Origin: an uncultured Gammaproteobacteria bacterium
Lineage (GTDB): Bacteria; Patescibacteriota; Microgenomatia; UBA8517
Length of the DNA stretch: 64,000 nt
Assembly: GCA_964583685.1 (NCBI GenBank)
Contig: CAZOVJ010000001.1
Coordinates: 393,152-457,151, forward strand
Direction of reading: 5' to 3'
The notes under the pieces: model-generated
Databases searched by the model: none
Seen by the model: the letters and a program-made list of their open reading frames with translations, nothing else
What the model was told of the DNA's origin: nothing
Shown: positions 9,501-40,563 of the stretch, in pieces
Layout of the letters: each line of letters begins with the position of its first letter
Numbering within the stretch: position 1 is the first letter of the stretch
Position numbers and translations under genes: made by a program

Positions 9501-11110
9501 AGAAATTTTTATTCGGATTTGGAATCATTTTAATTCTGATTCTCGGGCTTCTGTTTCGCCTTATCTGGTTGTCCAAATCTCCGCCCTCATTGAACTGGGA
9601 TGAGGCTGCCTTGGGGTACAATGCCTACTCACTTCTTTCAACCAGTAAGGATGAATTTGGTAATAGACTACCAATTTCTCTTCGTTCCTTTGATGATTAC
9701 AAACCGGCTCTTTATGCTTATGCGACCATTCCCTTCATATCTCTTTTCGGCTTAAACGAATTCGCGGTTAGACTCCCTTCTGCCATCTCCGGAACCCTAA
9801 GCATATTTTTTATCTATCTTCTTTGCCAGACTCTTTTCAAGAAAAGAAGCATCTCTCTAATTGCCGCCCTTCTACTGGCAATTGAGCCCTGGTCTGTTCA
9901 CTTCTCCCGAGCCGCCTTTGAAGCGAACCTTGCCCTAGCCCTTTTTCTCGCCGGAATTTATCTTCTCATCAAATCTCAACATAAAAACATTTATCCGTTT
10001 TTAGGCTTTTTTCTACTTGTGCTTTCTGCTTATGCCTACCACTGCCAAAAACTACTTTTTATGCCAGTCATTTTGGCCTCCTTATTGGCCTACAAAAAAT
10101 CACTGATAAAAAACAAGAAAACAATTATCCTTGTCCTTTCCATGACTTTTCTTCTTAGCCTGCCCTTAATAAACCAGTTTTTGTTTCATCAAGAAACCCT
10201 GGGCCGGCTCGGCTCGACCTCAATAATAAAAATCTGGCAAGACAAATTCTCTCAAACTCCAAATCTCTTGATTGAAAACCCGCTTTTTTTTATCGCTAAA
10301 GACCTGGGTTCACACTATCTCTCATATTTCTCACCAGTCAATCTCTTTGTTCGGGGAACAGGAGAACCAACTCAGCACATTCCCAACTTTGGCATGTTTT
10401 ACAACTTCGAATTTTTCTTTTGGCTAATCGGCTGCTTTTTGTTAATAAAGAACTTCAAAAAGCAAAAATTTTTAAGTTTTCTTATCCTGATCGCTCCCTT
10501 GCCGGCCGCCATTACCTGGAACTGGTTTTATCCGGCCAGGGTTTTACTGCTTTTTGCTCTTTTCTCAATATTAATTGCCTGGGGTTTTGAATACGTCTTT
10601 GCCTGGCTCCTTTCCGCCCGACGGCCTTTTCATCTTCTTCTCTTCTTGGCGATACTTATTTTTGGTCTCATCAATGCTGCCAACCTGGCAACCTCGCTTC
10701 TTTTCTATCTTCCCTATCAAGAACGGGGTAATTGGCAATTTGGCATGGGCGAAATAACCCAAGAAATTTCAAAAAACGAAAACAATTACCAGCAAGTTAT
10801 ATTTGAAACCAAAACCGCCCAACCCCATATTTTTGTTCTTTTTTATTCAAAATACCCACCTCGTCAATACCACCAAGAAATAGAGACTCTATCTAGGAAA
10901 AAATCCCCTAGGAAATGTTTTGATTTTGGAAAATACAAATTCCGAGATGTCTACTGGCCGAAGGATAAAAAACTAGCCAATACCCTTTTGGTTGGCCCGG
11001 AATCGAGCCTTCCCTTGGAAAAAATAAAAACCCAGGAAAATGTGAATTTTATTCAAGATGTAAGAGATTCAGAGGGAATTTTACTAGCCCGATTGGTTGG
11101 TTTGAGGTAA
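9476..11110 (+). CDS. GT-C glycosyltransferase, ArnT/PMT family, paralog 5
   Basis: NWDEAALGYNAYSLLSTSKDEFG...GLNEFAVRLPSAI. Confidence 0.85.
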   Translation: MDRLFQQIKKFLFGFGIILILILGLLFRLIWLSKSPPSLNWDEAALGYNAYSLLSTSKDEFGNRLPISLRSFDDYKPALYAYATIPFISLFGLNEFAVRLPSAISGTLSIFFIYLLCQTLFKKRSISLIAALLLAIEPWSVHFSRAAFEANLALALFLAGIYLLIKSQHKNIYPFLGFFLLVLSAYAYHCQKLLFMPVILASLLAYKKSLIKNKKTIILVLSMTFLLSLPLINQFLFHQETLGRLGSTSIIKIWQDKFSQTPNLLIENPLFFIAKDLGSHYLSYFSPVNLFVRGTGEPTQHIPNFGMFYNFEFFFWLIGCFLLIKNFKKQKFLSFLILIAPLPAAITWNWFYPARVLLLFALFSILIAWGFEYVFAWLLSARRPFHLLLFLAILIFGLINAANLATSLLFYLPYQERGNWQFGMGEITQEISKNENNYQQVIFETKTAQPHIFVLFYSKYPPRQYHQEIETLSRKKSPRKCFDFGKYKFRDVYWPKDKKLANTLLVGPESSLPLEKIKTQENVNFIQDVRDSEGILLARLVGLR

Positions 11111-23269: not shown

Positions 23270-24186
23270 GAGCCCTGACCTAAACGGCAAAGATAAAAAT
23301 CGCGAACAGCCTTTTTCTGCCATTCTCTACCTGAAAGCAAAAATTTCAGACTTTCTTTGAAAAGAGCGAGCTTTGCCCTCAAAGAAGCATATTTTATAGC
23401 AAACAAAAGTCTGTTTCGGGTAATAAAATAGTCATTTAAATTACTGCCAATTCCCGAGCTCCTGGCTACCTTGTGCCAAAGATGGGCCGAAGGTAGATAC
23501 AAAATCTGCCAACCCTTTTTCTTCATCCGTTGACACAAATCTACATCCTCTAAATACATAAAATACTCCTCATCAAAAAAACCCACTTCCTTTAAAGCCT
23601 GAGCTCTTATTAACATACAGGCTCCGCTAGCAAAATCTGTTTCCTCAACTTTATCGTATTGTCCTTTATCCAGCTCATCCACACCCCGATTACTACCCAA
23701 AAGATTTTTCCAATCGAACTTTCCTCCTGCATACCAAATAATTTTCCCCAACTCTGATTTCTTGTATCTTTTTTTGTGAAACTCAAATCCGGGTGCAAAA
23801 TAGATTTTTGGCGACAAAATCCCTGCCTTTTCATAATTTTCAGCCGCTTTAATTAATTGAAGTAAAAGACTTTTATCGACCAAGGTATCGTTGTTCAAAA
23901 GTAGCAGATAATCAGCCTTGTTTTTAAGAGCATATTTAATACCAACATTATTCCCCCCGCTAAATCCCAAGTTCTTTTTATTCTTAATTAGTTGAAAGTT
24001 GGAGGTTGAAAGTTGAAAGTTGCTGAGGCTCTCAGGTGAGCTATCAGTTGAGCCATTGTCCACCACAACCACTTCTACCCTGCAATTATCAGTTAATAGC
24101 CCCTTAAGAGATTTCAAGCACTCAAGAGTATCCTCATGGCCGTTGTAGTTCAAAATGATAATTGAAACCTTTAGCTCTTTAGCCAT
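23260..24186 (-). CDS. GT2 family glycosyltransferase
   Basis: VSIIILNYNGHEDT...VVVVDNGSTDSS...LLLNNDT. Contains the SNFQLSTSNFQL repeat insert. Confidence 0.8.
   Translation of the reverse strand: MAKELKVSIIILNYNGHEDTLECLKSLKGLLTDNCRVEVVVVDNGSTDSSPESLSNFQLSTSNFQLIKNKKNLGFSGGNNVGIKYALKNKADYLLLLNNDTLVDKSLLLQLIKAAENYEKAGILSPKIYFAPGFEFHKKRYKKSELGKIIWYAGGKFDWKNLLGSNRGVDELDKGQYDKVEETDFASGACMLIRAQALKEVGFFDEEYFMYLEDVDLCQRMKKKGWQILYLPSAHLWHKVARSSGIGSNLNDYFITRNRLLFAIKYASLRAKLALFKESLKFLLSGREWQKKAVRDFYLCRLGQGSWK
23991..24025. repeat. Heptanucleotide tandem repeat (GTTGAAA-like)x5, in frame in a GT2 gene
   Basis: gttgaaagttggaggttgaaagttgaaagttgctg encodes SNFQLSTSNFQL in 23260..24186. Confidence 0.9.
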
Positions 24187-25099
24187 TTAAAAATTTTCTT
24201 TTAATTCTCAGAAAAAATGAAGAAAAAAGATTTTTGGAACTGATAAGAGACTCTGTTGACCACCAATTATATTCCCCAATAGTCTTCTTAATCTCCTTGT
24301 CTACCTCTGGCAAAGAAAATTGTTGTCCGAGAAATTTCTCTTCCTGCCAAATTTTCAAATACAAAACAAGTTCAGAAAAGGCTTGAAGAAGAGAAAGAGC
24401 AAGACCATGAAGACCATCTTTATATCCCTGACCATGAAAATAGCGACCTAAAAATTCAGAGCTAGGTCGTCTTATAAGGTCGGGCCAAATAAATCTATGT
24501 CCTTCTTTTATTTTGTGGTTTGCTTGTATTGTTGTGTAGCGATTCATACGCCTCAAAAATTGCTCAATTGATTGATAATGATGATGAATAATAGCCAAAT
24601 CTTCTTTGGCCGGTAAATCAATTCCCCGACCCTTGGTCATAGGAATAGAGTGAATCACCTCACTCCACTTAACAGATCCCTTTTTGAAAAAACGAATATT
24701 TAAATCAGGCCACCAGCGAGAATGTTTCAGCCATTTACCAAAAACAATGTTCTTACGAGGAATTCGATAAAAATCAGGGCCAAGCCCTTGACTAGCAGAA
24801 TCGGCTATCTCCCTTAACTTTCTGGCCAAGCCCTGCTGAAGTTCTTCGTCTGCATCTAAAATTAAAATCCAATCTCCTTCTGTTTTAGAAATGGCAAAAT
24901 TCCTGGCTGGCTCGACATAACCTGTTCTCTTGTGTTTAAAAACCTTTGCCCCTGCCTTTTTGGCAATCTCAACTGTTTTGTCAATTGACTGCATATCAAC
25001 AACAACAATTTCATCTGCCAGCTGCTGGATGGAAACAAGAAGGCGTGGTAAATTTTTCTCCTCATTTAAGGTGTTGACGACAACTGAAATCTTGCTCAC
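24179..25099 (-). CDS. GT2 family glycosyltransferase
   Basis: ISVVVNTLNEEKNL...IVVVDMQSIDKT...LILDADE. Confidence 0.8.
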   Translation of the reverse strand: MSKISVVVNTLNEEKNLPRLLVSIQQLADEIVVVDMQSIDKTVEIAKKAGAKVFKHKRTGYVEPARNFAISKTEGDWILILDADEELQQGLARKLREIADSASQGLGPDFYRIPRKNIVFGKWLKHSRWWPDLNIRFFKKGSVKWSEVIHSIPMTKGRGIDLPAKEDLAIIHHHYQSIEQFLRRMNRYTTIQANHKIKEGHRFIWPDLIRRPSSEFLGRYFHGQGYKDGLHGLALSLLQAFSELVLYLKIWQEEKFLGQQFSLPEVDKEIKKTIGEYNWWSTESLISSKNLFSSFFLRIKRKFLNG

Positions 25100-25347
25100 A
25101 AATCAATTTTACCACGATATCTCAGATTTATTTAATCTTTTCCTTGAAGCCTCATTGACTCCAACCTGCCATGAGGCTATAGTATGTACGAACCTTAAAA
25201 GCAAAAATACCTATAGGAGGATTGCCTGTTTAAAAAACAACTGCAGAATGGTGACTCTGGCACTTAGCTTTTTGTCTATTTTCTTGCGCTCATCCTCATA
25301 GCGAGGAAATCGGGGCAATGACTTAGCAAACTGAAAGGAGCAAGATC

Positions 25348-25713
25348 GTGATTGAGACTAAAGATGGTCAGGGTTCTGAACAGGTTCATGTCACCATATT
25401 CACTCTAATTGCGGAACTCGAGGGCTATGCCTGGGTGGCCTGTGGCATGATTTTCGCCCAGTTTCTCATCAACCTGGTTGGCCCAGCAAGGCTAACTTGC
25501 GGTGCCGGCGAAGCCTACTGTCGGGATTGGCAGTTGCTACTCCTTTCTCTGGCAATTGGGCTAATAATATTTAGCTTAATTGCCTTGTGGTGTTTCTTCA
25601 GGAAAACCGCTTTATTCCCGCAAGTGCGTACTCCAGGGGTAATCTTAGCTAGCCTTGGGGCATTTGCCGGAATAGTGGTAGCGTCCACGATCCTGGCAGG
25701 AATTTTCTACTAG
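25348..25713 (+). CDS. Small 3-TM membrane protein of unknown function on a GC-elevated island (GTG start)
   Basis: 121-aa ORF with GGAG about 8 nt upstream of GTG. GC is visibly higher than the flanks. Three hydrophobic helices. No recognisable family. Confidence 0.4.
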   Translation: MIETKDGQGSEQVHVTIFTLIAELEGYAWVACGMIFAQFLINLVGPARLTCGAGEAYCRDWQLLLLSLAIGLIIFSLIALWCFFRKTALFPQVRTPGVILASLGAFAGIVVASTILAGIFY

Positions 25714-25772
25714 TTACAGGAGGCAGAAATGCTAAAGCTCTATGGTTGGCTGCTCTGACCGTCGGTCCATAA

Positions 25773-25812
25773 GTGGGTGTTGCTTAATGCAGCAAAGACA
25801 GGCAGCACCCAC
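25773..25812. terminator. Strong hairpin (11-bp stem GTGGGTGTTGC/GCAGCACCCAC, one G-U pair; 18-nt loop) 1 nt downstream of the stop of 25814..27535
   Basis: Inverted repeat read directly. Sits between convergent ends, so it may act as a bidirectional terminator. Confidence 0.4.
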
Positions 25813-25813
25813 C

Positions 25814-27535
25814 TCAGTATTTCACTTCGTATATATTAACTTCTGAATTTTCAAATATTTTTGTTATTCCCAGCTGAGTCTCACCAAGTTTAGCTCGCTG
25901 GTCTTTTAGCCAATAAATATAAGAAATATTATTTTCTATCAGAAACTTCCTTACTTGATTTTGTTCCAGAGTGTTTAAGAAATCTAAAACTTTTTCCCGT
26001 CTTGAAGGCCAATCGTAACCAGTGATATTTAAATTAACCTCATCTTCAAGGTAAACTGGCTTATCAGAAAAAGCAGAAACATAGGCTGTTGATTCATATA
26101 AATAAAGGGGTCTGGGTGGGTGGCTAACTGCCTTTTCTGCCGCCTCTTTATCAAAAGGATAGGTTAGCACTACAGCTTCTGGCTGTTGAGAAAGAAAGCC
26201 TAGGGCTTCAAGTTCTTGATTTGAAATTTTGGCCGGAGGCCGACCGGTCAAATAATGATTTTTTAGTGTTACAAAAGTGGTAGGAATTGTCAATAAAACA
26301 ACGCCTATCACTATAAGGATACGAGCCCATGAAGTTTTTTGCCTCTCAAACCATTCTCCCACCACCAAGCCGGCCAAGATTGCAGAAAAAAATAAAGAAT
26401 AGTAAAAAAACTGAATTGTATTCCAAGGAGTCCCCTTCTGAAGGAAAAAGAGGGGAATAAACAGGCCGGCCAATATTACTGTTCCCAAGAATATTTCAAT
26501 CTCACCTATTTTTTTAAATTTTTTCAGCCATTGACAAAAGACAATTGCTCCCAGAACCCTAGTTCCCATATTCCCCAGCCAAAATATTAGGAAAGCAATT
26601 AAATAGGCTGGAACTGCTTTCCAGTAAATCTTGGCCAGCCGATAGTTAACCATTGCCTCCTGAAATCTTGGCCAGCCCAGCCGGTCTGAAAGACCCATCA
26701 TTGTTTCCAAAAACCAAAAAGGCCGGAAAACCAAAAGCCCAACAGATTTTTTGTTTAAGGCTAAAAATAAAAGAAGAGAAATGACTAAGGAAGCAAAAAA
26801 GACAAAAATAAGCCTCCTATTTTTTTTACAAAGAATTGCTAGGCCTAGACCAAGCAAGGCTAAAACCCCAGCATAAGCCTTCACCTCAATGAGAATAGCA
26901 AAAATAAAAACAGCAAAGAGAAAATGAAAAAGAGAGAAACGCTTTTTGAGCTCTAGTAAAGCGATTAAGCCCAAAAGCAGCAAAAGCAAAGATAAAGCAA
27001 AAGGAGGATTAATCAGAGTTGAAATCGCCTGTTGGGCCCAAAACATGGACTCTCCAGTAAGCCTTCCTTCTCGGACAAGGCTCACCAGCCAGCCAAAACT
27101 AGCAGCAAAATAAGTAAAAAACAGAGCCCAAAGTGCTTGGGTTCGGGCCTGCCTCGCCGAGTCTAGGCGGGATTTTCTCCAAACAAGAACAAATTTATAG
27201 GTCGCCAGGCCAATTAAAATTGCCAAGATTGGCGGTGTCAATTGAAAATAAAGAATCTCAACCGGAATCCGGCTGATTTTATGGATAATTGCCAAAAGAA
27301 GATCAAAGCCCGGATGATAATTGGCCAGTTTCTCTCCGGCAAAAACCGGCATCTCGGCTGAATTCCTAGCTAAACTCTTAATCAAGCTAATATGCCAAAT
27401 ACCATCGTGGCCATTTGCTCCCCAGAACCCCAGACCAGAAGCACAGGCCGCATCCCAACAAAGCCCGCTTCTAACCATAACCAAGGACCAGGACAGAACA
27501 CCAAGAATAATTAGTAACACTGTTAATTTCCTCAT
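25814..27535 (-). CDS. Polytopic membrane protein, GT-C-like, unknown specificity
   Basis: 573 aa, at least 12 TM helices, C-terminal soluble domain. Co-operonic with a GT-C neighbour. Confidence 0.55.
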   Translation of the reverse strand: MRKLTVLLIILGVLSWSLVMVRSGLCWDAACASGLGFWGANGHDGIWHISLIKSLARNSAEMPVFAGEKLANYHPGFDLLLAIIHKISRIPVEILYFQLTPPILAILIGLATYKFVLVWRKSRLDSARQARTQALWALFFTYFAASFGWLVSLVREGRLTGESMFWAQQAISTLINPPFALSLLLLLLGLIALLELKKRFSLFHFLFAVFIFAILIEVKAYAGVLALLGLGLAILCKKNRRLIFVFFASLVISLLLFLALNKKSVGLLVFRPFWFLETMMGLSDRLGWPRFQEAMVNYRLAKIYWKAVPAYLIAFLIFWLGNMGTRVLGAIVFCQWLKKFKKIGEIEIFLGTVILAGLFIPLFFLQKGTPWNTIQFFYYSLFFSAILAGLVVGEWFERQKTSWARILIVIGVVLLTIPTTFVTLKNHYLTGRPPAKISNQELEALGFLSQQPEAVVLTYPFDKEAAEKAVSHPPRPLYLYESTAYVSAFSDKPVYLEDEVNLNITGYDWPSRREKVLDFLNTLEQNQVRKFLIENNISYIYWLKDQRAKLGETQLGITKIFENSEVNIYEVKY

Positions 27536-29265
27536 CAGATTTTAGTTATCCAACTTTGACAAAATTTCTTCCTTGACTGCCCTTCAACACTAAAATCCCT
27601 GTACGCCTCAGGGTGAACATACTGCCCAAGTTCAAAATCTCGACACAAAAAATCCTTTTTAATCACGTATTTTGCCAAAACATCCCGAAAGCGAGTAATG
27701 CGAGCAAAACCCTGTTCTGTCTCTTCTCTGCAATTCAGCTTCCCGTCAAAAATCCAAACAATATTTTCGTCCAGGCCATTCTCAAAACAATCAGAAACAA
27801 AGCTGACATTTCTATAGGAATAGTTTTTGTTAACCAGTCCCTCTGGTGCATTTAGATAAAAAAGGTACTCATGAAAAAGAATTTTTGGTTCAAAAGTAGA
27901 AACAATAATTTCTTTATTTGGATATGTCTTTTGAGTTAAATCTATATATCGAACAAGAACTCTATCTTGGAAAAACCATCCATCAGAAGCATAAACCGGA
28001 AAGCGATAAAAATAGATATGTAAAAGATTGACAAAAAGCAGCAAATAGATTGCGAGCAAAAAATATTTCAATCTTCCGAATCTCATTACATAACCTAAAC
28101 CGAGCCCAATTAAAATAATCAGAAAAGGGTACATCAACCCCGCTCTTTGGCTGTAAGAATGCTCGATTGTACTCAACCCAGAGGTCAACGAACCAACGGC
28201 AATGGCAACCAATAAAAACCACCATGTTTTTTTGCTTTTGAAAAACAATAGACTAAAGCCAACCAGCAAAAAAAGTAAGTCAACAAAGTAAAAAGTGCCG
28301 TGTTTCTGATAAGAAAAAGCAGCCCGAAGTTCGCCATTAAGAAACAAATTATCAGCCGAAAAAGTGTTCAGGTATTTTTCTAAAAAGCCCTTGCCATAAA
28401 CAGTTAACTTATTAATAAACAAATTATTGAACTGCCAGGGTACTGTTCTTAACCTCTCGCTGTTTACCTCACCACTTATTTCAGACAATGTTGGTAAATA
28501 GAGTTCTCCACCTCTTGCCCTCATTGATTGATTCTGGATAATAATTACTGCATAACTAGCAAGGATGACAGAAACAATAAGACTGAAAACAAGATAGGGT
28601 TTTATGCTGCGTTGACCACTAGAAAAGTAATGATAAAAAAGAGTAGCGATTATAAAAAAATAAAAAGCAATCTGACCACCTGTATAGCTAAAAAAACCCA
28701 AGAGATAAAAAGGTAAAGCATAAAAGATACCATAATCTTTCTTCTTCAGAAGAACAAGAAAACCAAGCAAAAAGAAAAAGACAAAAAAGTTTACCTCAAA
28801 GACCGTCCTACCCATTAAAAAGCTCCAGGGATTTATTGCCATTACAAAAGATGTGATAATGGCAGTCTTTTTGTCGGCGAAAAGGTGCATAACTAAGTGA
28901 TAAACAACCAGGACAGTGAGCGAAGATAAAAGTGCGCCGACCATCCTACTTGCAAAAAGGGAAAAAGGCAGAGGACCAACAATTAGCATCAATAAAAATA
29001 CTGGAACCTCTGCAACCGTAACAGTGAAATCTTGCATTTGAGTCGGTAAAACTGCCGGAGCTGTACCCGATACAAACTTACCAGTTTTAAAGAATGATTT
29101 TGCTGCAACAACATAATTGAGCTCGTCATGTGTCATTCCTATAGGGAACTTGTCAAGTAAAATTAACCTTATCCCCAGAGAAAAAATAAAAATCAGGAGC
29201 AACCAAAATTTATTTTGAAAAAACTGTTCTAAAGCCTTTTTTAACATCAGCAAAGATTGAGGCAC
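27535..29265 (-). CDS. GT-C glycosyltransferase (PMT/ArnT-like, divergent)
   Basis: First-loop motif GMTHDELNYVVAAKSFFKTGKF. Polytopic, with a C-terminal soluble domain. Confidence 0.65.
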   Translation of the reverse strand: MPQSLLMLKKALEQFFQNKFWLLLIFIFSLGIRLILLDKFPIGMTHDELNYVVAAKSFFKTGKFVSGTAPAVLPTQMQDFTVTVAEVPVFLLMLIVGPLPFSLFASRMVGALLSSLTVLVVYHLVMHLFADKKTAIITSFVMAINPWSFLMGRTVFEVNFFVFFFLLGFLVLLKKKDYGIFYALPFYLLGFFSYTGGQIAFYFFIIATLFYHYFSSGQRSIKPYLVFSLIVSVILASYAVIIIQNQSMRARGGELYLPTLSEISGEVNSERLRTVPWQFNNLFINKLTVYGKGFLEKYLNTFSADNLFLNGELRAAFSYQKHGTFYFVDLLFLLVGFSLLFFKSKKTWWFLLVAIAVGSLTSGLSTIEHSYSQRAGLMYPFLIILIGLGLGYVMRFGRLKYFLLAIYLLLFVNLLHIYFYRFPVYASDGWFFQDRVLVRYIDLTQKTYPNKEIIVSTFEPKILFHEYLFYLNAPEGLVNKNYSYRNVSFVSDCFENGLDENIVWIFDGKLNCREETEQGFARITRFRDVLAKYVIKKDFLCRDFELGQYVHPEAYRDFSVEGQSRKKFCQSWITKI

Positions 29266-30673
29266 CCATTAAAGAGTAAATAACTATAAAATAAAATATT
29301 CCTCCCAAAATCACCAAGATGACAATGGAAATTAAGTTTACAGGCAGAAAATTGCGAACAAGCAAAAGCAAAGCTGCCATTGTCAAACCAGCAATCCCCG
29401 GCTTGAAGATACTCTCAAGCAAAGAAAATTTAACATACCTTCTGGCTATATAGATGGCGATAACCGAGCTTGAAGAAACCAGGGCATAGCCGGCGGCCGC
29501 CCCATTGACTCCATATCTTTTTGTCAAAAAGGGCAAAAGAATCCAAGACAAAACTGTCCACATAATCATCAATTTAAAGGTAATTTTGATTTTGCCAATG
29601 GCATTGAGAAGATTGGTCAGTTGAGTGGTAGCGGCAGCGAAAGATGCACTGATGGCAAAAAAACTGAGAGCTGTCAGGGCCGGAATCCATTTTTGATAAC
29701 GAGGAATCACCCGAACTAAAAACGGTGCGACAATTAAAATTCCCAAAATACTGGGGAAAACTAAAAAGCAAACAAAAAATATCGAGCGGGTAACAAATCT
29801 TTCAAGTTGTTTTTTATCGTCTTGCATTCGAGAAAAGGCCGGAAAACTAACTTTTAAAACATTATCCATAAAAAATCTTAGAGGCATCTGGCCTAATTTT
29901 TGGGCAAAGCTAAGGAAACCCATTCCCGCACTACCTAAAATCCCTCCTAAAACTATTATTAGACCATCGTCCTTGATTGTTGCCAAAAGAGTATTCAGTT
30001 GATAGGGAAGGCCAAAGCGCAAAAGTTTTCTTAGAGATTTTCTGGAAAAGGCCAAGCCAGGCATCCAAGGTTGAAGCAAATAGATGGCCACCAGCCCAAC
30101 CAAGCCCCTGATTAAAACGGCAATGGTAAAGCTGGTAATTCCCAATCCTTTCCAGGCAGCCAAAACCACTACGATGTTGTAAACAATATTTTCGAGAATT
30201 TGAGGAAAGACAAGCCTTTCAAACTTCAACTTTCTCTCAAGTAAGGTTGAGGGAATAGTTTTTAGGGAAGAGAGAAGTAAAGATATTCCCAAGGCATACA
30301 AAAGATAAAGGCCCTCTTGAGATAATTTATAAAATTTGGCAATAAAAGGCGAGCTCAAAAATAATATGAGTAAAAGCAGGATGACCAATCCCTGCTGGAC
30401 AGTAAAGGTTGTTTTCAAATCTTCATCTGTAACCTTCTTCCTTTTCTGAATCAAAGAAGCAGCCAGGCCAATATCGGAAAAGTAAGCTAAAAAGTTGACA
30501 ACCGCCGAAACCATGGCAAAAACCCCAAATTGGCTCTGGTCCAAAAATGCCCATAAAAATCCAGTGGCAATAAAAGAAAGAAGATGCAATAAGAAGCTTC
30601 TGCCAGTCAGAGTAACCACTCCGTGAACTGCCCGAGCTTTTACTTTCTCAAGAGTCATCTCCGCCACACTCAA
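29210..30673 (-). CDS. Wzx-like polysaccharide/oligosaccharide flippase (MOP superfamily)
   Basis: 487 aa, about 12-14 TM helices, typical PST-family organisation. Sits in a glycan locus. Confidence 0.6.
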   Translation of the reverse strand: MSVAEMTLEKVKARAVHGVVTLTGRSFLLHLLSFIATGFLWAFLDQSQFGVFAMVSAVVNFLAYFSDIGLAASLIQKRKKVTDEDLKTTFTVQQGLVILLLLILFLSSPFIAKFYKLSQEGLYLLYALGISLLLSSLKTIPSTLLERKLKFERLVFPQILENIVYNIVVVLAAWKGLGITSFTIAVLIRGLVGLVAIYLLQPWMPGLAFSRKSLRKLLRFGLPYQLNTLLATIKDDGLIIVLGGILGSAGMGFLSFAQKLGQMPLRFFMDNVLKVSFPAFSRMQDDKKQLERFVTRSIFFVCFLVFPSILGILIVAPFLVRVIPRYQKWIPALTALSFFAISASFAAATTQLTNLLNAIGKIKITFKLMIMWTVLSWILLPFLTKRYGVNGAAAGYALVSSSSVIAIYIARRYVKFSLLESIFKPGIAGLTMAALLLLVRNFLPVNLISIVILVILGGIFYFIVIYSLMGASIFADVKKGFRTVFSK

Positions 30674-30722
30674 ATTGTAGCATTAGTCTAATTAAGAACA
30701 AAATATATTGTAAAATATTCTA
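30674..30722. promoter_or_regulatory. Divergent promoter region between the Wzx-like operon (-) and the 30723 operon (+)
   Basis: 49-nt AT-rich spacer between divergent starts. No specific -35/-10 assigned. Confidence 0.3.
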
Positions 30723-35555: not shown

Positions 35556-37193
35556 ATGCCAAAACGAATCCTTCTTTTTCTTTTGATCTTAATTATTCCC
35601 ACTTTTTCTTCCCTTCTTAGGCCAGGATACTTCCCCATGCACGACGACTTACAGGCAATACGACTTTTTGAGATGGACAAGTGTATAAAAGATGGCCAGA
35701 TTCCCTGCCGTTGGGTACCGGATATGGGTTATGGTTATGGTTATCCTCAATTTAATTTCTATGCTCCATTTCCATACTACTCAATGGAGATTTTTCATCT
35801 TTTGGGTTTAGGATTTCTAGATAGCATCAAGGTAGTTTTTGCTTTAAGCGTTCTTGTTTCTACTTTTGGCATGTTTCTCTTGGGAAAATCACTTTGGGGT
35901 AACACGGGAGGATTGATCAGTGCTCTATTATATGCTTACGCACCCTATAGGGCTGTGGACATGTATGTTCGGGGAGCAGTAGGAGAATTTTGGGCACTTG
36001 CCTTTCTTCCCTTAATTTTGTGGTCTTGCAGGGAGGTTCTAAAAAACAACAGAAAAGCAGTCTTATGGCTCGCATTATCTTTGGCCGGATTATTAACATC
36101 ACACAGCATTACTTCTCTTATTTTTATTCCCGTGTTTTTTGTTTGGGTTGCTTTTCAATTTTTCTTACTTGGCAAAGAACTGAAAAATATTGTCTTGAGT
36201 TCTTTTTGGGGCTTTTCAATGGCCGCATTTTTTCTTGTTCCAGCCTGGTTTGAGAGAGGATTTGTCCACATCCAAACCCTGCTTCAAGGATACTTTAATT
36301 ATTTAGCTCACTTTGTCAGCATTAAGCAATTATTATTCTCGACTTACTGGGATTACGGCACATCTAAGCTTGGGCCATATGATGATATTTCTTTTGCTGT
36401 TGGCCTTTTGCATTGGATATTGCCCATGCTGGCAGTTTTTCTTTTTATTATTACAAAGAAGAAAAAGCAATTATTAACTTTGTTGTTTTTTGTTGCTATA
36501 GGCTGGCTAGCTCTCTTTATGACCCACCAAAAATCAGTCTTTATCTGGAACAAAATTACAATTTTATCTTATTTACAATTTCCCTGGAGATTCTTAACCG
36601 TTGCCATATGTTGTTTTTCTGCTGCCTCTGGCTCAATCGCCCTTCTTTTTCCAAAAAATAAAAAGTTCATCTTTTCAACCTTAGCTGGAATTTCTGTCTT
36701 CATTCTCATCTTATATTCAAACTATTTTAGGCCAATAAAGTGGTTAGAAATCACTGATAACGAAAAACTCTCTGGAGAGCTTTGGGAAAAACAGTTAACC
36801 ATTAGTATCTTTGATTATTTACCTATTTACGCCGAGAGTCCACCTGGAGAAAAAGCGCCTGATAAACCACTAATAATAAAAGGGGATGGTAAGACAATCT
36901 CAGGTCAGACAGGCAGTAATTGGCAAAACTGGAAAGTCAGAATGGACGAAGAAGGGCGAATTCGCTTGCCCCTGTTTTATTTTCCAGGATGGAAAGTGTG
37001 GGTGAACGGCCAAAAAACTGCCATTGATCATGATAACAAGCTGGGCTTAATAACAGTTAGAGTGACTGAGGGTGAACAACAAATTTTAGCCAAGCTTGAA
37101 AGTACGCCAATCAGAAAATTGGGCAATATGATTACTCTAGCCGGCTTTTTGACTATTCCAGTATTTTTAAGAGAGGGGGGAAAGAAAAAATGA
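35556..37193 (+). CDS. YfhO-like GT-C membrane protein, 'HDDLQ' family paralog 1
   Basis: FPMHDDLQAIRLFEMDKCIKDGQIPCRWVPDMGYGYGYP. C-terminal YFPGWKVWVNGQ shared with the 810-aa YfhO-like protein. Good SD (GGAG). Confidence 0.65.
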   Translation: MPKRILLFLLILIIPTFSSLLRPGYFPMHDDLQAIRLFEMDKCIKDGQIPCRWVPDMGYGYGYPQFNFYAPFPYYSMEIFHLLGLGFLDSIKVVFALSVLVSTFGMFLLGKSLWGNTGGLISALLYAYAPYRAVDMYVRGAVGEFWALAFLPLILWSCREVLKNNRKAVLWLALSLAGLLTSHSITSLIFIPVFFVWVAFQFFLLGKELKNIVLSSFWGFSMAAFFLVPAWFERGFVHIQTLLQGYFNYLAHFVSIKQLLFSTYWDYGTSKLGPYDDISFAVGLLHWILPMLAVFLFIITKKKKQLLTLLFFVAIGWLALFMTHQKSVFIWNKITILSYLQFPWRFLTVAICCFSAASGSIALLFPKNKKFIFSTLAGISVFILILYSNYFRPIKWLEITDNEKLSGELWEKQLTISIFDYLPIYAESPPGEKAPDKPLIIKGDGKTISGQTGSNWQNWKVRMDEEGRIRLPLFYFPGWKVWVNGQKTAIDHDNKLGLITVRVTEGEQQILAKLESTPIRKLGNMITLAGFLTIPVFLREGGKKK

Positions 37194-38854
37194 AAAGAGT
37201 GGTTCCATTTCTATTAATTATTTTTCTCGCTCTTCCCGCAGCTAGATATTTGCTTGGACAGGGTTACTTTAACATGCACGATGACTTGCAGGTTATGCGT
37301 ATTTACCAGTTTGAGAAATGCTTGGCAGACGGACAAATTCCTTGCCGATGGTCTCCTGATATGGCTTATGGATACGGTCAAGCAATGTTCAACTTTTACA
37401 GTACCTTTCCTTACTATCTTGGAGCTCTAATGAGAATTATTGCCCCTTTTTCTATCATGGAAACAGTTTTGCTTCTTTTCTTAATCTCACTTATTTTGTC
37501 TGCTTTTGGAATGTATTTTTTAGCAAAACAGTTTTGGGGGAAACTGGGTGGTATAGTGGCCGCAGTTTTGTATACTTACGCTCCCTATCATGGCCTTGAT
37601 ATCTTTATTCGAGGCGCACTGGCCGAGTCGTTTAGCTTAGCCATATTGCCATTTATTTGGCTTTTTATATATCTGGTGATTAAAAAAGCAAGCTTTCAAA
37701 GAGTTGTGGGGCTAACTCTTTCTTTGGCAATACTCTTTACCACTCACAACGTTTCTTCTTTAATGTATGCTCCCTTTACAGCTGTTTGGGCTCTCTTTTG
37801 GATAGTTTATTCAAAAAAATGGAAGTCAATATTGGGCCTTGGACTGGGGGGCGTTCTTGCTTTAGGAATTTCAGCCTTTTTTCTTCTGCCAGTCTTGTTT
37901 GAGCAGTCCTTAATCCAGAAAGAGTTTTTTACGATGGATTATCTTGACTATAATGCACATTTCGTCTCAATTAGGCAACTTTTCTTGGATAGAGCTTGGG
38001 GACATGGGCCTTCTATTTTTGGACCTGAGGATGAATTATCTTTCCAAATAGGATGGCCACACTGGTGGCTGGCAATCCCTTTAACTTTTATTGCCCTTTT
38101 CTGGTTTGTAAAAAAACGAAGCAAATCTCTACTGTTTGTCATTTTAGGTCTTTTGGGGTTTTCGGCTTTGACTGCCTTTTTAACCCATTCCCGCTCAACC
38201 CCCATATGGCAAGCAATACCCATGATGGCCTTTATTCAATTTCCCTGGAGATTTTTAGGGCCCACTATATTTGGACTTTCCTTTGGAGCCGGAGCTTTGG
38301 TAAAAACAGGAATCAAATTTAGACACCTAGTTGGCACTTTTATTATCATATTAGCAATCGTATTGAACTTTAACTATTTTAAGCCCTGGAGTACCTATGC
38401 GATAAATGATGAAGAAAAGTTAAGCGGTATCTCATTTGAGATTCAGCAAAAGTCAGCCATATTAGACTATCTTCCAAAAACTGCGCCGATTGCTCCAAAA
38501 GAGCTTGCTCCTGAAAAGCCAATTATTGCCTTCGGTGAAGCTGAAACCTACAACTTCTCAAAACGCTCAAATAGCTTCTTTTTTGATGCTGAGGTATATC
38601 AAAACACGGAAATTCAAATTCCAGTCATGTATTTCCCGGGCTGGAAAGTTATCTCTGAAAAAACTGTCATTCCCAGTTGGCCCTCAGGAGATTATGGACT
38701 CATTACTATTGAGCTACCTCAAGGCAAACATATTATCAGAGGAAGGTTTGAAAACACACCGGTACGAGACATTGGCAATACAATATCCATATTATCAACA
38801 ATCATTATTTTCTCAGGCTTTTTGGTTGAAGCTAACAAAAAGAAATCAAAATGA
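37190..38854 (+). CDS. YfhO-like GT-C membrane protein, 'HDDLQ' family paralog 2
   Basis: FNMHDDLQVMRIYQFEKCLADGQIPCRWSPDMAYGYG. C-terminal YFPGWKVISE. 4-nt overlap with the upstream gene. Confidence 0.65.
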   Translation: MKRVVPFLLIIFLALPAARYLLGQGYFNMHDDLQVMRIYQFEKCLADGQIPCRWSPDMAYGYGQAMFNFYSTFPYYLGALMRIIAPFSIMETVLLLFLISLILSAFGMYFLAKQFWGKLGGIVAAVLYTYAPYHGLDIFIRGALAESFSLAILPFIWLFIYLVIKKASFQRVVGLTLSLAILFTTHNVSSLMYAPFTAVWALFWIVYSKKWKSILGLGLGGVLALGISAFFLLPVLFEQSLIQKEFFTMDYLDYNAHFVSIRQLFLDRAWGHGPSIFGPEDELSFQIGWPHWWLAIPLTFIALFWFVKKRSKSLLFVILGLLGFSALTAFLTHSRSTPIWQAIPMMAFIQFPWRFLGPTIFGLSFGAGALVKTGIKFRHLVGTFIIILAIVLNFNYFKPWSTYAINDEEKLSGISFEIQQKSAILDYLPKTAPIAPKELAPEKPIIAFGEAETYNFSKRSNSFFFDAEVYQNTEIQIPVMYFPGWKVISEKTVIPSWPSGDYGLITIELPQGKHIIRGRFENTPVRDIGNTISILSTIIIFSGFLVEANKKKSK

Positions 38855-40563
38855 TAATAAAAAAATTTTTAAACCATCCTCTCTCTATTGCCTTTTTTTT
38901 GCTTATACTATCAATTCCCGCCAGTCTGCCTCTCCTTTCTGCCGGTTTTTATGAGCCGCATGACCTTCATCATTTTGCCGATATCTATCAAATGATACGG
39001 GCTTTTCAGTCTGGACAACTTCCTCCTAGGTTGGGGCCAGATTTTAGTTTCGGCTATGGCTACCCCTTGTTTAACTTTTATTACTTAATGCCTTTTTATT
39101 TAGGATCCTTTTTCTTCTTTTTGTTCGGTAGTATCACTGCCAGTTTTAAACTAGTCTTTTTGGTTTGCATAATTTCCTCAGTCTTGGGAATGTATCTGTT
39201 TTTGCGAGAATTTACAGGAAAATGGGGAGCAACAGTAGGCTCAATTCTATTTCTTTACACCCCTTACCGGGCAGTGCAAATTTACGTAAGGGGGGCAATG
39301 GGTGAAGCATTGGCTTTATCTTTACTCCCCCTTGTTCTATGGGGAATTACAAGAATTATTAGAAATCCTAACAATAAAAATTTAATGGCTGGTGTCTCGC
39401 TAATCACCGCCACTTTTATTCTTTCTCACAACTATCTCTGGGCGCTTTCGTTTCCTTGGATTCTACTGCTGATAATTTTCCTTATGGCTAAAAGAGGAGG
39501 AAAACGCCCTGGGAAAAGCCTCATGTTTACTGGTCTTTTATCTATCGGTCTTACTGCATATTGGTGGCTGCCTGCTTTGCTAGAAAATAAACTGGTTGCC
39601 TCAAAAACGCCATTTCCACTTATAGACCACTTCCCCTTTATCAAACAACTAATTATTCCCTCCTGGGGTTATGGCAGTTCGGTTTGGGGGCCAGGAGACG
39701 AAATTTCTTTTCAAATCGGTTTAATAAATTTGTTTGTCTTAGCGTTTTTTGCCTTGCTTCTTATTTTCAAACAAAAGCTTTTTAGAAAAAAAGGGTTCTA
39801 CTTTCCCTTGTGGGCATTGATTGGTTTTTTGGCAAGTGTCCTGATGATGAATTCCCGAACTTATTTTATTTGGAAAATTATTCCCTTTCATAATTTCATT
39901 CAGTTTCCCTGGCGCCTCTTGGTTTTTACCACTTTATTCTCAAGTGTTTTAGCCGCCATCATTGTTGATCTAGTCAGTAAAAAAGGGCAAAAATTTGCTG
40001 GAATTTTAGTTATTGGCACCAGTATGGCCTTAACTTTTAATTACTTCCAACCAAGCAAAATCTTTTATAAAACTGACAATAACTATCTTGCCCGCCTTTT
40101 TAGCGATAGAACTTTGGAGGGAAAAAAAGAAACAATCTCTGATGAATATTTAAATTATAGCGAAGATTATCTGCTTTTATCCAAATGGACAGACAAGCGG
40201 CCGAGCAACTTGCCTGAATCTAAAATTCAAGCTTCAGCTAATGCCGAAATAAAGCTTATTAAGGAAATAAATCCTACTCACTGGCAAGCTAAAGTAGAGG
40301 CAAAACAAGCAACAAAAATTATATTTCACTCTTATTACTTTCCCGGATGGTTTGCCAAGCTTGATGGAAAAAATACTGAAATTTCAGCAGCTAAACCTTA
40401 TGGTCAGATAGAACTTCAACTTTCAAAAGGCGAACACGAAGTAGAGTTTTTCTGGAAAGAAACACCTCTCCGTAAAGTGAGTGATCTTATTAGTTTACTT
40501 TCACTTATTCTAGTTATTATAGTTTTAGTTCCGAAGAAGCTCACCTTTCACAATCTCAAATAA
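38851..40563 (+). CDS. YfhO-like GT-C membrane protein, 'HDDLQ' family paralog 3 (divergent)
   Basis: YEPHDLHHFADIYQMIRAFQSGQLPPRLGPDFSFGYGYP. C-terminal YFPGWFAKLDGKN. Confidence 0.6.
   Translation: MIIKKFLNHPLSIAFFLLILSIPASLPLLSAGFYEPHDLHHFADIYQMIRAFQSGQLPPRLGPDFSFGYGYPLFNFYYLMPFYLGSFFFFLFGSITASFKLVFLVCIISSVLGMYLFLREFTGKWGATVGSILFLYTPYRAVQIYVRGAMGEALALSLLPLVLWGITRIIRNPNNKNLMAGVSLITATFILSHNYLWALSFPWILLLIIFLMAKRGGKRPGKSLMFTGLLSIGLTAYWWLPALLENKLVASKTPFPLIDHFPFIKQLIIPSWGYGSSVWGPGDEISFQIGLINLFVLAFFALLLIFKQKLFRKKGFYFPLWALIGFLASVLMMNSRTYFIWKIIPFHNFIQFPWRLLVFTTLFSSVLAAIIVDLVSKKGQKFAGILVIGTSMALTFNYFQPSKIFYKTDNNYLARLFSDRTLEGKKETISDEYLNYSEDYLLLSKWTDKRPSNLPESKIQASANAEIKLIKEINPTHWQAKVEAKQATKIIFHSYYFPGWFAKLDGKNTEISAAKPYGQIELQLSKGEHEVEFFWKETPLRKVSDLISLLSLILVIIVLVPKKLTFHNLK

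Follow-up and report, generated by a model that had tools for sequence, protein, structure and literature searches.

Between positions 25,100 and 25,813 of the 64-kb stretch of DNA analysed here (the window), which belongs to an ultra-small bacterium of the Microgenomates group (candidate phyla radiation, CPR; Patescibacteria), a 714-bp region separates two genes of a conserved surface-glycosylation operon that are neighbours in related genomes. This region is likely to be a horizontally acquired, moron-like single-gene cassette, lodged upstream of an intact promoter of the GT2 glycosyltransferase gene. Its gene, which we term orf121, runs on the strand opposite to the operon and encodes a small membrane protein. 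A preliminary description of this DNA, made from the sequence alone, had raised a horizontally acquired cassette as one option; this is well supported, because the region is absent from the conserved junction in relatives, the codon usage of orf121 is foreign and a distant homologue is found on a phage-like contig. The features central to this reading are the following:

24179..25099, minus strand: GT2 glycosyltransferase, 306 aa, a flanking host gene (PF00535, 8e-20)
25105..25114, minus strand: extended -10-like box TGGTAAAATT, 5 nt upstream of the GT2 GTG start (25099); host DNA, left limit of the insertion
25286..25817, no strand: compositionally foreign segment, GC 0.50 vs 0.38, by change-point and GC profile
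25334..25340, plus strand: Shine-Dalgarno sequence AAAGGAG, at a 7-nt spacing from the GTG start of orf121 (read from the sequence)
25348..25713, plus strand: orf121, a 121-aa membrane protein with three transmembrane (TM) segments, GTG start, foreign codon usage and the invariant loop of its family
25814..27535, minus strand: 573-aa polytopic membrane protein with a GT-C fold (STT3/PglB/DPY19-like, by Foldseek), a flanking host gene

The insertion at the GT-C-fold/GT2 junction

We compared the window with 80 related Microgenomates genomes, which were fetched via the 573-aa neighbour protein (25814-27535). The orthologues of the two flanking genes are adjacent and on the same strand in 57 of the 80, with spacers of -26 to 76 nt, and in these relatives the GT2 orthologue comes directly after the GT-C-fold gene; in the window, 714 nt (25100-25813) separate the two. 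The closest relatives, which share 63% identity and come from a metagenomic protein collection (L088, L089, L090), show the same adjacency: their flanking genes overlap or are separated by spacers of 51 nt. This tight junction is spread across the Woesebacteria, Blackburnbacteria, Amesbacteria, Shapirobacteria and unclassified Microgenomates. The stretch is missing from the conserved junction in all relatives examined, and tblastn finds no match to orf121 in any related locus. Since the flanking genes are adjacent in relatives and there is no orf121-like coding there, these comparisons indicate that the 714-bp stretch is a lineage-specific insertion of about 0.6-0.7 kb. Four assemblies, namely the window, Logan SRR3095939, ENA ERZ27251135 and JGI 3300008517, are 100% identical across the junctions; as the last three come from other repositories, the insertion is not an assembly artefact. 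The ENA ERZ27251135 contig k141_2438836 (L002) corresponds to window positions 24373-25710 and stops 3 nt short of the end of orf121, just upstream of the hairpin that follows the gene; this break could reflect strain heterogeneity or a drop in coverage at the edge of the insertion.

A different history, in which orf121 was an ancestral resident of the operon that most relatives have lost, would draw on the fact that the junction is variable in a minority of genomes, with about ten relatives carrying unrelated inserts. These inserts are not orf121-like, and the tight junction extends across five Microgenomates groupings. Together with the foreign codon usage of the gene and the restriction of its family to only three clusters in about 15 billion proteins, this makes an ancestral origin exceedingly improbable, and indeed it is already largely refuted.

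The other inserts at this same GT-C-fold/GT2 junction are mutually unrelated and range from 0.15 to 3.7 kb, or from 0.4 to 3.7 kb for the ten loci listed here (L020, L022, L028, L032, L039, L042, L054, L073, L079, L080). Examples include an extra 453-aa membrane protein, an opposite-strand 458-aa protein, and opposite-strand open reading frames (ORFs) of 115 and 165 aa. None of them is homologous to orf121. The junction is hence a recurrent insertion spot.

The left limit of the insertion is marked by a conserved element of the host. Of 34 spacers from relatives, 23 contain a TGnTAnAAT box whose end lies 5-10 nt ahead of the GT2 start (0.2 in shuffles; loci L004-L081), and the shorter TAnAAT is present in 33 (3.8 in shuffles). 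The motif TGNTANAATT is not enriched across the window (6 found vs 5.9 expected): its significance derives from its conserved position in the relatives and not from its abundance. The presence of a conserved box before the GT2 start implies that the junction is a transcription-unit boundary with an internal GT2 promoter, and the mRNA made from it would probably be leaderless or nearly so. A similar box, TGCTACAATT (30673-30682, minus strand), is found at the head of the first gene of the operon, which encodes the flippase. We also observe a 12-nt inverted repeat (11 of 12 positions complementary), CGTGGTAAATTT / AATTTTACCACG, at 25044-25055 and 25105-25116, which brackets the GT2 start codon and pairs the promoter-box region with GT2 codons 15-19; it may be due to chance or may form a start-region hairpin.

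The composition of the insertion sets it apart from its surroundings. The GC content of orf121 is 0.497 as against 0.389 for the window; only 0.2% of all 366-nt segments reach this value, and the maximum for the whole 64 kb is located here. A maximum-likelihood change-point model with two boundaries places the raised-GC segment at 25286-25817 (about 0.53 kb), with a GC content of 0.50 vs 0.38 outside, and the left ~185 nt (25100-25285) are at the background level of 0.37-0.39. Thus, the GC profile is not uniform and the GC-elevated island first described at 25100-25813 is real, but it occupies only about 25286-25817 and not the full ~0.7 kb. GC at third codon positions (GC3) is 0.51 in orf121, compared with 0.37 +/- 0.04 in 50 genes of the window, and the codon score of the gene lies under those of all 143 host-gene chunks of the same length. 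When the same protein is written in host codons the GC content becomes 0.448, as opposed to the observed 0.497; about half of the GC excess of orf121 is therefore due to amino-acid composition and the other half to codon choice. The synonymous codon usage of orf121 is foreign.

The orf121 protein family and its occurrence on a phage-like contig

The predicted product of orf121 has three hydrophobic segments, and its AlphaFold2 model (mean predicted local distance difference test score, pLDDT, 77.5) consists of three long helices. The 121-aa three-helix membrane protein with a GGAG-GTG start that had been noticed earlier is accordingly all there, save that it contains four cysteines rather than the two then counted; two of these, C51 and C58, are shared by all members of the family and are located in the loop that follows TM1. 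An exhaustive HMMER search of 1.84 billion cluster representatives recovers only three clusters: that of orf121 itself, P0002 (125 aa, 36% identity to orf121, E 3e-6) and P0003 (120 aa, 27% identity, E 1e-4). Word-indexed searches with the single protein and with a three-sequence profile return the same three clusters and nothing further, scans of viral contigs with all three family proteins are empty, and so is a metagenome scan with P0001. No known family is matched alongside these two distant clusters. The orf121 protein is thus a near-orphan, which together with its two relatives makes up a very rare, new family of tiny membrane proteins.

The three members fall in the same length class and have the same hydropathy layout with three TM segments, at pairwise identities of 25-36%. 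Five residues are invariant across all three: A47, R48, C51, C58 and W61, which form an AR-x2-C-x6-C-x2-W loop after TM1. The invariance of the cysteines and the tryptophan and the conservation of hydropathy at this divergence indicate that orf121 is a real protein-coding gene. Positive charges in the family are concentrated in the TM2-TM3 loop, which predicts a topology with the N-terminus inside and the C-terminus outside (N-in/C-out); the cysteine pair would then face outward, and C51 and C58 probably form an extracytoplasmic disulfide. Candidate assignments to described families do not hold up: DUF2569 gives a weak match (E 0.019) to one member only, and the fold matches obtained with Foldseek are to generic three-helix bundles only.

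The genomic contexts of the two relatives differ in how much they reveal. P0002 is encoded on a 1-kb contig of about 50% GC with no informative context. P0003-type genes, such as that for P0006 (99% identical), are found on JGI contigs of up to 43.6 kb (Ga0209342_10000539). The co-directional block around P0006 encodes a DNA helicase (phrog_1967, 9e-93), to which 319 phage records match, as well as an ERCC4 nuclease, a Rad52-like annealing protein and an HNH endonuclease, and farther away on the contig are a primase/helicase, a PAPS reductase and a methyltransferase. These surroundings represent a phage-type replication/recombination module. No endolysin is recognised beside the orf121 homologue, the neighbours being replication/recombination genes or unmatched small ORFs. 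The phage-like contig and the window have nothing in common besides orf121, whose own match is too weak for tblastx at E<=1e-4. Similarly, no similarity to the homologous loci or to the loci of the relatives is seen in the flanks of the cassette: the match is confined to the ORF and to the protein level.

At positions 9550-10646 of the L087 locus (Ga0209342_10000539), the orf121 homologue comes after a tRNA-Met gene and a putative ORF of 75 aa, which runs over the start of the homologue (ATGA), and precedes a gene for a protein of 86 aa whose C-terminus carries a TM segment; the same region is seen in L085, L086 and L084. In one member of the cluster, P0007 (199 aa), a frameshift has fused the orf121 homologue to the gene for this 86-aa protein.

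Predicted promoter, hairpins and RNA folding

In addition to the Shine-Dalgarno sequence, the insertion contains several predicted expression signals and structures:

25148..25178, no strand: upstream hairpin; perfect stem of 8 bp, AGCCTCAT / ATGAGGCT; loop of 15 nt; folding free energy (dG) -12, z -2.4
25155..25183, plus strand: promoter-like site TTGACT-17 nt-TATAGT, sigma-70-type, 10/12 matches (prediction only)
25551..25584, plus strand: internal near-palindrome with a 14-bp stem, in the TM2 codons; dG -18.8
25729-25758, plus strand: mini-ORF MLKLYGWLL*, 9 codons, with a perfect AGGAGG (25718-25723), a 5-nt spacing and an ATG; directly after the orf121 stop and before the 3' hairpin
25773..25812, plus strand: 3' hairpin with 11-nt arms, 13 pairs including G-U and a 14-nt loop; dG -20.9 kcal/mol, z -3.2

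The promoter-like site is placed such that it would drive orf121 with a leader of about 160 nt, which is itself unstructured (z +0.8). The upstream hairpin overlaps this site and is weak (3 of 200 shuffles are as stable); an upstream hairpin at 25148-25181 had been reported earlier, and one is present at 25148-25178, but with a stem of only 8 bp. The strong hairpin with an 11-bp stem that had been noticed at 25773-25812 against the stop of the GT-C gene is borne out. Only 1 of 200 shuffles is as stable, and the plus strand (-20.9) is favoured over the minus strand (-18.5), on which the stem is shorter. It adjoins the stop codon of the minus-strand GT-C-fold gene (25814-25816) and so lies between convergent stops, making it a candidate terminator or 3' stabiliser. 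The mini-ORF in front of it may be a vestige or truncated start of the next gene of the donor.

GC-rich islands in AT-rich genomes are often structured RNAs. It might thus be asked if the island is mainly such an RNA, be it a small RNA, a cis-acting regulatory element or an antisense RNA that regulates the glycosylation operon, with the ORF being incidental; the preliminary description had likewise allowed for a structured RNA region. The fold of the orf121 mRNA has a z of -4.6, with 0 of 100 shuffles as stable, and that of the whole island a z of -4.9. The hairpins at 25773-25812 and 25551-25584 are the two most stable on the plus strand of all those in the 64 kb whose stems are 11 bp or longer, a point in favour of an RNA, while the number of such stems in the window is at the chance level in simulations. 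In a calibration against segments of 24 host genes (mean -0.26, sd 1.4), the orf121 segment, at -4.05, is the most extreme of the 25; one ordinary host gene segment, however, reaches the minimum of -3.95. For the coding regions of the homologues, folding is only slightly stronger than in shuffles (z -1.55 and -1.70), so that an mRNA structure conserved in the family is unsupported, the strong fold being absent from the homologues, and the loci are similar at the protein level only. Rfam 15 gives no match at the gathering score anywhere in the 64 kb and none that is credible at E<=10: the best permissive match in 25000-25900 scores 23.7 bits vs a gathering score of 86, and is to a eukaryotic microRNA family. 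With the 5' leader unstructured, and the invariant cysteines and tryptophan and conserved hydropathy at 25-36% identity pointing to selection at the protein level, an RNA as the main content of the island is very unlikely.

Two further interpretations of the hairpins were set aside. The 3' hairpin was considered as an integron attC site, but in an informal check by eye no RYYYAAC/GTTRRRY core sites were seen and no integrase was noticed. An exact-pattern match of the hairpin arms in IMG/VR (L091) is due to chance: it falls within a ParA-like ORF on a contig that has a GC content of 0.61 and is not otherwise similar. The internal palindrome (25551-25584) has no viral match.

Probable acquisition, possible role and known systems

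The sequence of events that we favour for the cassette can be outlined as follows. Foreign DNA of about 0.6-0.7 kb would have landed at a transcription-unit boundary, between the stop of the GT-C-fold gene and the extended -10 promoter of GT2. Placed upstream of this promoter, it would leave the downstream genes still expressible; this would explain why the insertion is tolerated, and may also explain the inserts of other relatives at the same spot. The cassette itself would be an autonomous unit comprising the promoter-like site, the unstructured leader, the Shine-Dalgarno sequence, the gene and the hairpin favoured on the plus strand, with the promoter and the 3' hairpin presumed to work as such from their sequence. 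Its product, encoded on the strand opposite to the operon, would be an inner-membrane protein with three TM segments and a short outward loop bearing the two invariant cysteines.

A close counterpart of such an arrangement is the phage moron: extra DNA between genes that are adjacent in relatives, with deviant GC and its own promoter and terminator (PMC3594210). Its product is often a small membrane protein, and that of HK97 gene 15, gp15, is a small inner-membrane superinfection-exclusion protein (PMC3594210). The orf121 cassette resembles the HK97 gene 15 moron in the following: extra DNA between genes adjacent in relatives, one small gene whose GC and codon usage deviate from those of the surrounding genes, a promoter-like site and a stem-loop that bracket it, a small inner-membrane product and a homologue on a phage-like element. 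In contrast to a moron, the orf121 cassette is in a bacterial chromosomal operon and not in a prophage, so that one defining moron feature is absent, and its promoter and terminator are predicted only. There is also no sequence or fold similarity of orf121 to HK97 gp15 or the PHROG families.

Members of the Patescibacteria have been shown to acquire individual genes and prophages horizontally (Gios et al. 2025, PMC12455944). The transferred genes and islets described there resemble our case in that they are compositionally deviant and lineage-specific, belong to streamlined CPR genomes and may have arrived by way of viruses. They differ in that the present cassette is minimal, with one gene and boundaries mapped at an operon junction, and in that its product is a near-orphan membrane protein and not a metabolic or informational one. 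Foreign ORFan cassettes and horizontal gene transfer into Patescibacteria are already well known, and no new kind of system is required here; it is the protein family itself that is new.

As for what orf121 does, it is a tentative possibility that it is a phage-style accessory envelope protein, which might, as is frequent among accessory membrane proteins carried by phages, block superinfection or DNA entry or otherwise modify the envelope. The immunity-like product suggested in the preliminary description may be of this kind. The case for an exclusion role is circumstantial: a small membrane protein, the accessory position of its homologue by a tRNA in the phage-like contig, and the architecture of the cassette. 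Like HK97 gp15, P22 SieA and T4 Imm, orf121 is a small, phage-associated, multi-TM inner-membrane protein encoded by a stand-alone accessory gene, but it has no homology to any of them. To our knowledge, an extracytoplasmic Cys-x6-Cys loop is not a described feature of these three proteins. A more ambitious proposal, that the family comprises new mobile, phage-borne accessory membrane proteins whose minimal cassette lodges in chromosomes without a prophage and protects the CPR cell from phage DNA entry beside the genes for a putative receptor glycan, is at present doubtful.

Holins, one of the guesses in the preliminary description, call for separate comparison. Class I holins, such as lambda S105, also have about 100-120 aa and three TM helices and are phage-associated. 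They differ in topology, that predicted for orf121 being opposite (N-in/C-out), and orf121 has neither a charged C-terminal tail nor a dual-start motif: each of the three family proteins terminates within its third hydrophobic segment (...GIFY, ...GLFF, ...GYFI), which is the last part of the chain. No endolysin neighbour is recognised in the window or in the phage-like contig, and there is no PHROG match; the holin guess is thus unsupported. The small-toxin guess fares no better, since a type I toxin is typically a hydrophobic single-TM peptide of <60 aa that is overlapped by an antisense RNA, for which 121 aa with three TM segments is too large, and no known antitoxin RNA family was matched.

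The location of orf121 raises another functional alternative: that it is an accessory of the local glycosylation machinery recruited by horizontal transfer, such as a GtrA- or ArnE/F-like flippase or a small subunit of the STT3-like GT-C enzyme. The cluster indeed holds a Wzx-type flippase gene, two GT-C-type membrane proteins and several GT2 genes, and GtrA and ArnE/F are similar in size to orf121 (~120 aa, multi-TM). Phages commonly carry glycan-modifying conversion genes, for example P22 gtrABC (PMC10883804). Set against this, orf121 is on the opposite strand and is missing from every relative with the same operon, and the homologue on the phage contig sits among replication/recombination genes and not glycosyltransferases. 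No family member matches GtrA or another Pfam family above threshold; GtrA itself (PF04138) is not matched by any of them even at E<=10, and has four TM segments and not three. We hence consider a glycosylation accessory quite improbable.

The remaining alternative is that the cassette is a decaying, non-functional remnant of phage or other foreign DNA, neither expressed nor selected. The gene is solitary, without partner genes, the 9-codon mini-ORF resembles a truncated neighbour gene, the un-ameliorated composition implies a recent arrival, and there is no population variation among the assemblies to show purifying selection. Conversely, the ORF is of full length relative to its homologues, retains all the family-invariant residues and has a good Shine-Dalgarno sequence and start codon. 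Moreover, streamlined CPR genomes tend to delete useless DNA. Such a remnant is therefore unlikely.

Several points weigh against the favoured reading of the region as a moron-like cassette of mobile origin. With respect to the protein, orf121 has no match in Pfam, NCBIfam, PHROGs, PADLOC or the PDB sequences, nor with Foldseek in the PDB and BFVD. With respect to the insertion, the window has no convincing terminal inverted repeats, target-site duplication, recombinase or second copy, and the assemblies are all identical and may derive from related samples. The promoter-like site is at the chance level, with 1 found in 24900-26000 vs 1.7 expected from shuffles; the 3' hairpin is without a clear U-tract, and a terminator scan yields only a weak minus-strand site. 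As to the source, the phage-borne relative is only 25-30% identical to orf121, and it is GC-rich even in comparison with its own contig (GC3 z = 2.0). As it is richer in GC than its neighbours there, the phage was probably not the original source. There are no structural genes within the 20 kb read of the 43.6-kb contig, and the IMG/VR scan did not recover this contig; hence, 'phage-like mobile element' is the safe wording for it. As the donor of the cassette, a phage or another kind of mobile element is inferred. Finally, nothing observed distinguishes a role in exclusion or protection from a neutral gene that was stranded recently.

The case is of interest as a cleanly delimited single-gene horizontal transfer in a streamlined CPR genome, for which the empty ancestral site is documented in dozens of relatives, and it flags a tiny membrane-protein family with a conserved predicted disulfide loop that is common to a phage-like element and a CPR chromosome. 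If orf121 has an anti-phage or envelope function, it would be among the very few leads on phage-host interplay in Microgenomates; if it is an exclusion module, it would add a novel means of exclusion or defence to a phylum whose phage-host biology is almost unknown.

The surrounding glycosylation locus

The flanks of the insertion within the window are conserved syntenic host genes, encoding a Wzx-type flippase, GT-C-type proteins and GT2 enzymes. The preliminary description had called both immediate neighbours glycosyltransferases: the GT2 enzyme is identified as such by PF00535, and the GT-C label of the other is right at the level of fold only. This 573-aa protein has no match in Pfam, NCBIfam or the PDB sequences. 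The top Foldseek matches of its alignment-based model (pLDDT 80.5) are exclusively to GT-C proteins, with STT3/OST first (E 1e-8), followed by DPY19, PglB, AftA and ALG12. The model has a TM-score of about 0.5 to GT-C enzymes, and also contains a C-terminal alpha/beta domain. Its family comprises more than 1,500 proteins of Patescibacteria, all named 'hypothetical', and a precomputed Pfam domain is present in 1 of the 120 listed. Judged from the model, it looks like an unannotated oligosaccharyltransferase-like family.

The window is dominated, at positions 1126-48413, by arrays of paralogues: 14 polytopic membrane proteins that are related to one another and about 500-600 aa long, 11 paralogous GT2 enzymes and a further trio at 35556-40563. 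For a small genome, this is an unusually large surface-glycosylation locus. One array member, at 27535-29265, has a homologue in L090 with a weak PMT_2 match.

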